Part shown: one piece after another, positions 28,595-29,904 of the stretch
How the letters are laid out: each line of letters opens with the position of its first letter
Numbering within the stretch: the stretch's first letter is position 1
Source of the DNA: a bacterium BMS3Abin15
GTDB taxonomy: Bacteria; Patescibacteriota; Minisyncoccia; Moranbacterales; 2-12-FULL-40-10
Direction: 5' to 3'
DNA length: 49,919 nucleotides
Assembly: GCA_002923195.1 (NCBI GenBank)
Contig: BDTH01000047.1
Span: 1-49,919, forward strand
Notes under the pieces: generated by a model
The model's database searches: none
What the model was told of the DNA's origin: nothing
What the model saw: the letters and a program-made list of their open reading frames with translations, nothing else
Position numbers and translations under genes: made by a program

Positions 28595-29904
28595 TGCGAA
28601 TTGGAATAGACATTAGAAATATAGGCAAGAAACGTACCGGTGACGAGATGGTATTTTTTAATTTAGTTAAAAACTTGGCCGAAATTGACAATGAAAATAA
28701 TTACAAATTATTTACAGACATTAATAATAAAGAAACGGTCGCTGACATTAAAAAAAGACTAGGAATAGAAAATAAGGATAATTTTGAAATTATATCTCTA
28801 AAATCAAGCAGTAAATTTATTTGGAATTTCTGGACACTTCCAAATTACCTTCGCAAAAATCCGGTTGATATTTATCACACTCAATATATAACTCCTTTTT
28901 TCGTTTCCAAAAAAATAAACCACCACACCAAAAATCCGCACAAAAGACTTTGGAATAACTTACTAGTGATGTTACATTTAAGAAAATCTGGTGTGGGGGT
29001 GAAAATAATTACCATTGTTCACGATATTTCCTTTAATTTTTATCCTCGGTTCATAAAATTTCTAGATTTATTTTTTCTCAAAATCTTAATTCCTATGAGT
29101 CTGCGAAGAGCTGATAAAGTTATAGGAGTTTCTAAGTTCACTCGTGACGAAATAGTAAAATATTATAAAATTTACCCCCACACCAAAACGCCGGGTCTGT
29201 CCGGATTCTTTAAGAATTACTTTGCAAAAATTAAAGAAAAATATTTTGGTGTGGGGGTAAATCCGGGAAAAGTTGATTTTATTTACAACGCAGTGGGCGA
29301 CGATTTTTTAAATAATAATTTCTCCAGTGAACAATTGTCGTCTGTAGGAAAAAAATATAATTTACCGGAAAATTTCATATTTCATATGGGGACGATGCAA
29401 CCTAGAAAAAACATTCCTATTTTAATTAAAGCATATTCAAAAATAAAAGATCGTTTAGGTGGAACTAAACTGGTCCTTGCTGGAAATAAAAAAGCGCATA
29501 ATATTGACAAGGAAATTGACGAAGTTATTAAAAAATTAGGAGTTGAAGATGACGTTATTTTCACAGGATACATTGATCAGGAAGACAGTCCGGATGTTTA
29601 TAAATTAGCTAATGTATTTTGTATGCCATCGCTTTATGAGGGGTTTGGAATTCCAGTTCTGGAAGCTATGAGTCAGGGCACTCCCGTGATTGCCTCTGAC
29701 ATTCCGAGTTTGCGAGAAGTTGCCGGAGACGCCGCCATATACTTTAATCCTCAAGATATTGATGATTTGGCGGATAAGCTGTATAATGCTTGCATAGATA
29801 AAGAATTAAGAAATAAACTAATAAACTTAGGTTCTCGGCAAATCGAGTTTTTTTCTTGGAAAAAAACGTCTGAAAAAATGCTGGGAATATATAAGGAATT
29901 ATAA
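28594..29904 (+). CDS. Glycosyltransferase family 4 carrying two in-frame palindromic insertions
   Basis: MRIGIDIR, IVHDIS, GTMQPRKN, PSLYEGFGIPVLEAM; longer than paralog 25701..26873. Confidence 0.92.
   Translation: MRIGIDIRNIGKKRTGDEMVFFNLVKNLAEIDNENNYKLFTDINNKETVADIKKRLGIENKDNFEIISLKSSSKFIWNFWTLPNYLRKNPVDIYHTQYITPFFVSKKINHHTKNPHKRLWNNLLVMLHLRKSGVGVKIITIVHDISFNFYPRFIKFLDLFFLKILIPMSLRRADKVIGVSKFTRDEIVKYYKIYPHTKTPGLSGFFKNYFAKIKEKYFGVGVNPGKVDFIYNAVGDDFLNNNFSSEQLSSVGKKYNLPENFIFHMGTMQPRKNIPILIKAYSKIKDRLGGTKLVLAGNKKAHNIDKEIDEVIKKLGVEDDVIFTGYIDQEDSPDVYKLANVFCMPSLYEGFGIPVLEAMSQGTPVIASDIPSLREVAGDAAIYFNPQDIDDLADKLYNACIDKELRNKLINLGSRQIEFFSWKKTSEKMLGIYKEL
28920..28999. mobile_element. In-frame MITE-like element 1 in GT4
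   Basis: CCACCACACCA ... TGGTGTGGGGG; flanks TAAA/TGAA; encodes HHTKNP...KSGVGV. Confidence 0.75.
29175..29257. mobile_element. In-frame MITE-like element 2 in GT4
   Basis: Perfect 18-bp IR TTTACCCCCACACCAAAA / TTTTGGTGTGGGGGTAAA; encodes PHTKTP...YFGVGV. Confidence 0.85.

Follow-up and report, generated by a model that had tools for sequence, protein, structure and literature searches.

In the genome of the bacterium BMS3Abin15 (Patescibacteriota, Moranbacterales), a GT4 glycosyltransferase gene located at 28594..29904 on the forward strand of contig BDTH01000047.1 (49,919 nucleotides as a whole, hereafter the window) carries two short hairpin-ended segments within its reading frame. We propose that the two segments were inserted independently and belong to a non-autonomous family of mobile elements with terminal inverted repeats (TIRs), CCCCCACACC...GGTGTGGGGG, that insertion would occur at T-N-N-A sites with duplication of 4 bp, and that the copies, as a strict frame rule suggests, would be transcribed and translated within the protein; selection would then retain only frame-preserving, stop-free copies in tolerant loops, and an 84-aa single-domain GIY-YIG nuclease might provide the mobility in trans. 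Taken as a whole, this account is probable in our judgment; its core, namely the insertion and the translation, is very likely, and for the mobilization by the nuclease, taken alone, we see the case as evenly balanced.

Element 1 (80 nt, CCACCACACC...GGTGTGGGGG; 28920..28999) is flanked by TAAA on the left (28916..28919) and TGAA on the right (29000..29003), and element 2 (83 nt, CCCCCACACCAAAA...TTTTGGTGTGGGGG; 29175..29257) by TTTA (29171..29174) and TAAA (29258..29261). These 4-bp flanks are included in the range, 28916-29261, that a first-pass annotation of this DNA had assigned to the pair. The ends of element 1 are slightly degenerate, with 12-nt arms that are 92% complementary and a folding energy of -17.6 kcal/mol; those of element 2 are perfect and lie within a 19-nt perfect inverted repeat (ATTTACCCCCACACCAAAA/TTTTGGTGTGGGGGTAAAT, -33.6 kcal/mol). 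The two elements are separated by 175 nt and read in a common frame with no stop codons, element 1 encoding residues 109-136 (NHHTKNPHKRLWNNLLVMLHLRKSGVGV) and element 2 residues 194-222 (YPHTKTPGLSGFFKNYFAKIKEKYFGVGV), so as to give NHHT...GVGV and YPHT...GVGV, respectively. Both segments were thus found where the first-pass annotation had placed them and in the shared frame that it had described (HHT..GVGV and PHT..GVGV). The 8-mer CCCACACC occurs five times in the window as opposed to 0.33 expected, and none of 100 shuffles reached five.

Insertion is evident from the comparison with empty sites. As the first-pass annotation had noted, neither segment is present in the GT4 paralog in the same window (25701..26873 on the forward strand, defined by open reading frame (ORF), Pfam, and alignment; 34% identical to the host gene), and both are also absent from six orthologs of related genomes (60-65% identity), in which gaps of exactly 28 and 29 residues open in the alignment (VSKKI|KIIT and KYYKI|NPGK). 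The closest public ortholog (P0002, 380 aa) is 78% identical over the aligned columns, has approximately 85% nucleotide identity, and matches the host in its gene order, Wzy_C - GT4 - LytR/CpsA/Psr - GT2 - S41 peptidase. In the DNA of the syntenic ortholog (L167/L168), the gene is shorter by exactly 84 nt at site 1 and 87 nt at site 2 and reads ...CGAAAAA-TTAA-GGTAGTT... and ...CAAAA-TAGA-CCCGGG..., respectively, where the window has TAAA[80 nt]TGAA and TTTA[83 nt]TAAA. The nucleotide alignment of the empty and filled sites therefore gives net insertions of 84 and 87 nt, and both copies were gained after divergence from the nearest relative sampled. At the copies in the window, the element-free joins would read ...AAAATAAA|AATAATT at site 1 and ...AAATTTA|AATCCG at site 2. 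From this empty-site alignment and the statistics of target duplication in the family, the left flank of element 1, TAAA, is presumed to be a decayed copy of the duplicated target, which is TTAA in the empty ortholog; at the place of the left flank of element 2, the empty ortholog has a single TAGA.

The interiors of the two elements, furthermore, could not be aligned with each other (local alignment with shuffled controls, z of 0.8 in the forward and 0.1 in the reverse orientation) and were unrelated to the rest of the GT4 gene (z of -0.3 to 2.2). By blastn, they had no similarity to any other part of the genome, which is 1.22 Mb in size with 37% GC and consists of 114 contigs, the window being contig C47; this assembly is 89% complete, which applies to every genome-wide absence reported here. 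With no similarity of the interiors to each other, to the gene, or to the genome, an origin by local tandem duplication or from other host sequence is ruled out, and the view of the first-pass annotation that two insertions of one element family with unrelated interiors lie in one gene is borne out by the common termini, the 4-bp flanks, and the length rule described below.

The assignment of the host gene product (436 aa) to GT4 with a GT-B fold is based on its ORF, Pfam matches, predicted structure, Foldseek, and syntenic orthologs. It matches PF00534 (Glycos_transf_1) and PF13439 (Glyco_transf_4) with E-values of 1e-37 and 2e-11, and an AlphaFold2 model built on 44 orthologs (mean pLDDT of 84.7 and pTM of 0.82) has the two Rossmann domains of GT-B, for which the top Foldseek matches were BshA, MshA, PimA, and WaaG. 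In the model, insert 1 falls between a strand (93-97) plus a short helix (100-103) and the strand 137-142, with pLDDT below 50 at residues 109-134. Insert 2 falls between the helix 181-190 and the strand 227-229, with pLDDT of 50-59 that drops under 50 at residues 194-203; residues 205-218 are tentatively modeled as a helix. The two inserts are accordingly modeled as low-confidence loops of the N-terminal Rossmann domain that interrupt no confidently modeled element, in agreement with the proposed location in surface loops. The gene belongs to an envelope-glycan cluster (Wzy_C - GT4 - LytR/CpsA/Psr - GT2), and the best-named homologs of the proteins encoded in the window are from Candidatus Moranbacteria and other Patescibacteria.

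The same ends recur throughout the genome. A scan for CCCCCACACC and GGTGTGGGGG with at most one mismatch in each detected 37 paired elements of 44-352 nt, and a looser scan gave few more, amounting to approximately 37-40 copies; the apparent element of 352 nt is two short copies, and the short copies of 44-131 nt are non-coding. The family consensus is T-N-N-A|CCCCCACACC...GGTGTGGGGG|T-N-N-A with hairpin-forming ends. Terminal stems are 13-20 bp in individual copies, and their 10-nt cores are identical in most of them. Beyond the conserved 10-11 nt, the stem differs among copies and is complementary within each copy (AATT/AATT, AACTT/AAGTT, TTT/AAA, and CAC/GTG), and compensatory changes are seen even in the core, namely C-G to G-C at C60:25868 and C-G to T-A in contigs C24, C46, and C63. 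By blastn against the genome, the interiors are unique to each copy except for one pair, on contigs C24 and C35, which encodes a GIY-YIG protein. When all hairpin families with CCC...GGG ends were scanned for, 93 elements were obtained, the main ends being CCCCCACACC, CCCCGTTAGA, CCCCGCAC, and CCCTGTTAAA. At C22:2010-2037, we also noticed a 28-nt perfect palindrome, CCCCCACACCTATGCATAGGTGTGGGGG, flanked by TACA and TAAA, in which the two ends adjoin each other directly and no interior is present; it might represent a minimal element or the remnant of an excision or deletion.

Duplication of a 4-bp target is supported statistically. The flanks follow the consensus T-[T/A]-[T/A/C]-A (T-W-H-A) with nothing conserved further out, and perfect 4-bp direct repeats, including TCAA/TCAA and CTTG/CTTG, were found at 12 of 40 copies against 4.8 expected, a number reached in none of 5000 permutations. 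Flanks alike at three or more of the four positions were seen at 26 of the 40 (15.4 expected; again none of 5000 permutations), and inverted flanks were not enriched among these copies. In other genomes, perfect 4-bp repeats flank 56 of 115 copies. A fixed-length T-N-N-A duplication, as is usual for MITEs (miniature transposable elements bounded by inverted repeats), is thus observed. The insertion sites of the 40 copies have no base preference outside the 4 bp. A hairpin at the target was also considered and rejected, as folding was no more favorable at the reconstructed empty sites than at 1500 T-N-N-A sites taken as controls (Mann-Whitney p of 0.65).

Copies inside genes obey a strict frame rule. 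All 13 intragenic copies are free of stop codons and are 3n+2 nt long from the first C to the last G, which becomes 3n, or whole codons, upon addition of the 4-bp duplication (80+4 and 83+4 nt for elements 1 and 2), and the lengths of approximately 24 non-genic copies are divided evenly among the three classes. The 3n+2 rule also holds for 16 of 16 family-type intragenic copies from the scan that covered every CCC...GGG family, and the frame rule is followed by 18 of 20 copies within ORFs in other low-GC genomes. No gene-breaking copy was found in the genome; the sole candidate, C35:46746-46859, bordered by open frames of 333 and 380 aa, was rejected because it lies between two genes. This intergenic copy provides the upstream ORF with its last residues (TPTPISK) and stop codon, and the next gene starts just after it. 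Since excision from RNA or bypass by the ribosome would leave lengths and stop codons unconstrained, we infer from the frame rule that the copies are translated as part of the protein and not spliced.

The genes hosting in-frame copies are diverse. Those for envelope glycans include the GT4 gene with its two copies, a UDP-glucose/GDP-mannose dehydrogenase gene (24153..25598 on the reverse strand) with a 113-nt copy at 25247..25359 (ends CCCCGACACC/GGTGTTGGGG), a PMT-like membrane glycosyltransferase gene (5082..7022 on the reverse strand) with an 83-nt copy at 6376..6458 read as PPHQ...WCGG, a WecG/TagA transferase gene, and an NAD-dependent epimerase gene; the other hosts are TatD, YchF, and YebC, together with PheT, PriA, ThiI, and a FemAB-like protein identified by eye. 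Because the same family resides in TatD, YchF, YebC, PheT, PriA, and ThiI, the suggestion in the first-pass annotation that the insertions diversify surface-glycan enzymes finds no specific support, and general tolerance of loops is a simpler account than targeted diversification. As a side observation, the thiI gene (C74:19907-21392) has three in-frame hairpin inserts with two or three families of ends, located at 20138-20238 (CCCCCGCACT, degenerate), 20534-20577 (CCCTGTTAAATT), and 21074-21153 (CCCCCACACC).

A hotspot, or tolerance of GT-B surface loops, had been proposed from the repeated hits in one gene, and a part of this proposal stands. Pairs of insertions in the same gene number four in the genome, three from the triple thiI gene and one from GT4, against 0.17 expected for 17 intragenic insertions in 1115 length-weighted gene proxies (P = 1.5e-4), so genes with multiple hits are not random; selective filtering and possibly a preference for nearby re-insertion would leave a few genes with more than one copy. 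In the survey of orthologs that had been called for, site 1 was filled at the identical codon boundary in six of 119 other top-match orthologs (P0003, P0005, P0006, P0021, P0041, and P0058), and a search targeted at the insert added two more (P0241 and P0242). Site 2 was filled in none of the 119 and is private to this lineage. Among 43 aligned orthologs, site 1 is filled in five and site 2 in none. A maximum-likelihood tree of 44 orthologs, inferred after removal of the insert columns, requires five changes to account for the filled site-1 sequences, at least four of them forced by well-supported branches, and a close relative with an empty site exists for every filled sequence or pair; the recurrence thus extends over at least four clades.

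The DNA of four filled orthologs has ends of the same subfamily with flanks ATxx|A-CCCCC...GGGGG-T|xAAx. Interiors at site 1 can be aligned only within a clade (L170 with L171, z of 4.2) and not between clades. Homology of the interiors across clades, as might be read from a common tail "...K-x-F-GVGV", was rejected; the tail is present in the unrelated site-2 copy as well and hence stems from the A-rich consensus of subterminal positions in the subfamily and not from common descent. In L170-L173, all 26 end bases are identical, and the third positions of conserved codons are 45-62% identical. None of the five site-1 copies has a perfect duplication. Site 1 is therefore a genuine hotspot, or else a site at which insertions are repeatedly tolerated or maintained, for which three readings are possible: recurrent insertion into a single tolerated T-N-N-A site, an insertion of long standing with maintained ends and precise losses in other lineages, or end-guided replacement of the interiors. 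Recurrence at the same site as a general property was rejected, in that the insert in the dehydrogenase gene is common only to two close relatives (80-83% identical), with its ends decaying. Apart from the sites discussed here, the GT4 orthologs L010, L011, L013, P0062, P0069, and P0241 have other short in-frame inserts in other loops of the N-domain, such as SLNPSPKGRG, TFHSSPKGRGGLG, LTPTLSRGERVV, LSRGAEGVLQD, and a 29-aa segment in L011, and these look like products of different GC-rich hairpin families.

In terms of its distribution, the family reaches far beyond this genome. An exact-pattern scan with one genome per species found at least 118 loci with the family termini, mostly in many lineages of Patescibacteria; the matches listed include Saccharibacteria, Parcubacteria, Moran-, Doudna-, Uhr-, Woese-, Nealson-, and other Patescibacteria, and the few from other phyla among those listed are, by our estimate, consistent with chance. 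A phage vector was considered and rejected, as 6 matches in 2.9 million viral contigs are estimated to be about the level of chance, with no enrichment. A literature search by sequence and keywords retrieved no description of this family in Patescibacteria. We also noticed that a Candidatus Nealsonbacteria contig (L061) has three 74-nt copies with the same ends (5716-5789, 6578-6651, and 7754-7827), of which the interiors are clearly related and have two small inner hairpins, one copy being inverted; by eye, the frames that contain them resemble uvrA and uvrC. In contrast to the genome of the window, that of L061 appears to have had a recent burst.

As to mobility, the only coding members with these ends are those at C24:16010-16306 and C35:60473-60771 (297 and 299 bp), whose interiors are 86% identical to each other and unrelated to those of the short copies. 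Their sole ORF, which spans 60505-60756 in the C35 unit, starts with ATG directly inside the end (CCACACCAATYATG) and encodes 84 aa, which is a bare GIY-YIG domain (PF01541, E-value of 3e-18 over residues 1-71 of 84) with the UPF0213 proteins (PDB 1zg2 and 1ywl) as its nearest solved relatives and only sub-threshold matches in NCBIfam. Between the stop codon and the element end, both units have a small hairpin whose pairing is preserved through compensatory changes (GTTTGGGAA...TTCCAAAC versus GTTTAAAA...TTTTAAAC) and which may be a terminator or a recognition hairpin. The genome has 12 small GIY-YIG genes or remnants in approximately 1.2 Mb, several of which are bounded by their own (A)CCC... 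inverted repeats about 280-310 bp apart (ACCCCGTTAGAAAT, CCCTGTTAAATAAG, CCCCGTAGTGAAAA, and ACCCGCCCGCC), and these ends are also the ends of other families of short elements. Homologs exist in 33 of 41 related genomes at 1-12 copies each, a high number for such reduced genomes, and about half of 30 sampled loci form a unit of approximately 290 bp with related but distinct ends (TCGCCACACCATTC, TCCCCCACCACTTT, and CCCAGCACCTAAC). Two such units, L138 (G030:C9) and L140 (G006:C1), encode proteins 54-60% identical to that of the window's genome; their flanks are reverse complements of each other, so the same chromosomal site is occupied in two genera.

The GIY-YIG protein is a candidate for the mobilizing enzyme because no other gene is present in the full-length 297-bp members, whose ends are those of the family. 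On the model of the Ssn nucleases discussed below, it would probably recognize the stem formed by both ends in single-stranded DNA and would cut at the T-N-N-A junction, after which repair or ligation by the host would complete the excision and insertion. Several points weigh against this account. The role of the GIY-YIG protein in mobilization is purely associative, and GIY-YIG enzymes are nucleases, not known transposases, with no strand-transfer activity that we know of; the sampled GIY-YIG units have no clear target duplications; and the short copies, with their unrelated interiors by blastn, are not deletion derivatives of the units. As for the two GT4 copies, their flanks fit T-N-N-A, but neither duplication is perfect, and the intact ends at site 1 in the face of nearly saturated synonymous sites are not what simple insertion and decay would predict.

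Alternatively, the mobilizer might be a conventional transposase, for example of the IS1380/piggyBac-like DDE type, with the GIY-YIG genes being passengers or serving another role such as defense or control of transformation; we consider this unlikely. Inverted ends with a fixed-length target duplication are the classic anatomy of a MITE, and elements of the piggyBac/IS1380 type have CCC...GGG ends and duplicate a 4-bp, AT-rich, TTAA-like T..A target, possibly with scar-free excision. The lack of interiors shared between the short copies and the GIY-YIG units, as well as of known strand-transfer chemistry in GIY-YIG enzymes, would also suit a conventional transposase. In the genome, however, the IS1380-type transposase family PF13701 had no match, a weak point given the 89% completeness, and the single DDE_Tnp_1 gene (C10:2365-3021) is on a contig without any CCCCCACACC end and is unrelated to these ends; on this basis, the search for a conventional transposase gave no candidate. 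Our elements are, furthermore, 10-50 times smaller than those of the piggyBac/IS1380 type, and their target is T-N-N-A, not strictly TTAA. The only gene ever found between the ends is that of GIY-YIG, repeatedly and with end sequences co-varying across genomes.

It is also conceivable, but rather improbable in our view, that the hairpins are kept by the host for mRNA processing or stability, translation rate, recombination, or Ssn-like DNA uptake, with site 1 of GT4 being maintained for this reason. The identical end bases in the four orthologs, retained while synonymous third positions diverged to about 45-58% identity and flanking duplications decayed, would be expected from such a function, as would the conservation of the termini across many lineages of Patescibacteria and the stem extensions and core base pairs that co-vary within copies. 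On the other hand, the ends in the dehydrogenase gene decay among close relatives as neutral DNA would, element 1 is itself degenerate, and most orthologs function without the insert; recent re-insertion or gene conversion from other copies would equally explain the intact ends.

Removal of the segments before the protein is completed, by excision from mRNA through the terminal stem (of the bulge-helix-bulge or IRE1 type) or by ribosome bypass, is very improbable. Bypass is exemplified by T4 gene 60 and yeast mitochondria, and GC-rich palindromic bypass elements exist in AT-rich mitochondrial genomes; the stable terminal stem of 13-20 bp would likewise bring both flanks together. Such removal is already disfavored, nonetheless, by the frame rule in this genome, across families, and in other genomes and by the random length classes of the non-genic copies. 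The inserts of only 28-29 aa, moreover, are not introns, inteins, or known RNA elements, and Rfam gave no match better than an E-value of 0.9.

Finally, local duplication, slippage, or misassembly of host sequence, which the proximity of the segments in one gene might suggest, has next to no probability, being already refuted by the interior alignments and standing against the same ends at approximately 40 other loci and in other genomes, site-1 elements in orthologs of unrelated assemblies, and an independent assembly (GCA_011040175.1) with a fragment that is identical over the first 295 residues across both inserts, insert 2 being seen in the motif scan, so that misassembly is unlikely.

The insertion and translation of hairpin-ended copies, as we favor, invite comparison with several known systems. 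The elements behave like Rickettsia palindromic elements (RPEs), the short palindromic in-frame repeats of a reduced genome (Ogata et al. 2000 and 2002; reviewed in PMC10969869), but are not members of that family. In both cases, copies lie in frame in mutually unrelated genes for housekeeping and metabolism, adding segments that the protein structure tolerates, several families are found side by side, and between roughly a third and half of the copies are intragenic (PMC10969869). The frame kept in all 13 intragenic copies and the modeling of the GT4 inserts as loops accord with this likeness. RPE families are, however, conserved over the full sequence and peptide, whereas only the ends of approximately 10-14 nt are conserved here, and only the end peptides PHT and GVGV recur. 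In addition, our ends span many lineages of Patescibacteria instead of one genus, a 4-bp duplication can be demonstrated, and the full-length members encode a GIY-YIG nuclease. With MITEs such as Correia/CREE, ERIC, and Nezha, which are short, with TIRs, a fixed-length duplication, many copies, and occasional in-frame intragenic copies (PMC10969869), our elements have in common the size, non-coding nature, TIRs, fixed-length duplication, copy number, and in-frame copies; classical MITEs, however, derive from DDE-transposase insertion sequences (ISs) with the same ends and share their interiors, whereas here the interiors are unique and the coding members carry a nuclease and not a known transposase.

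GIY-YIG homing endonucleases are similar in that a GIY-YIG nuclease is tied to a selfish insertion in conserved genes, and the recurrent occupancy of one precise orthologous site, site 1, is a signature of homing. In contrast, our elements have no intron ribozyme or intein, the 84-aa nuclease has no DNA-binding domain, approximately 40 unrelated sites per genome share only T-N-N-A, and the flanks near site 1 have, by eye, no co-converted tract. The likely GIY-YIG partner resembles more closely the Ssn proteins, which are single-domain GIY-YIG nucleases cutting single-stranded DNA next to flanking hairpin repeats and whose NTS-ssnA-NTS architecture was noted by the authors to be IS-like (PMC11893778). 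A GIY-YIG-only protein of approximately 85-95 aa, many scattered orphan repeats, and co-variation of nuclease and repeat between genomes are features of both (PMC11893778); the GC-rich, hairpin-capable sequence on either side of the gene may also be comparable, and a place in the Ssn clade (cd10448) is conceivable. The Ssn repeats (NTS/dRS3/SRM), however, are self-contained hairpins of approximately 28 nt around genes (PMC11893778), whereas here the two arms of one inverted repeat bound a unit of 44-300 nt, a target duplication accompanies it, and copies are found inside coding sequence. A bolder reading, which we hold to be doubtful, would be that the ~290-bp GIY-YIG units and their coding-free hairpin derivatives constitute an undescribed class of nuclease-driven mobile elements, homing-like and acting as reversible in-frame modifiers of proteins; such a class would be spread in Patescibacteria, its ends would be kept by re-insertion, end-guided exchange of the interior, or precise excision at T-N-N-A, and it would return to an identical site in orthologous genes, as at site 1 of GT4.

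In conclusion, in-frame selfish palindromes in essential genes have been a curiosity of Rickettsia for 25 years with, to our knowledge, no known mobilizing enzyme. RPE-like behavior now appears across Patescibacteria lineages together with a measurable target duplication, a strict codon-preserving length rule, and a concrete candidate enzyme, namely a minimal nuclease of the GIY-YIG type, the architecture of which is akin to that of the recently described Ssn nucleases for single-stranded DNA. Two questions thereby become testable: how the elements move and why their ends stay intact inside genes. Annotators of ultra-small genomes also gain a rule by which such inserts can be recognized instead of being taken as odd protein extensions or frameshifts, and the GT4 gene, in which one site is private and the other is occupied recurrently, lends itself well to testing as a natural example.

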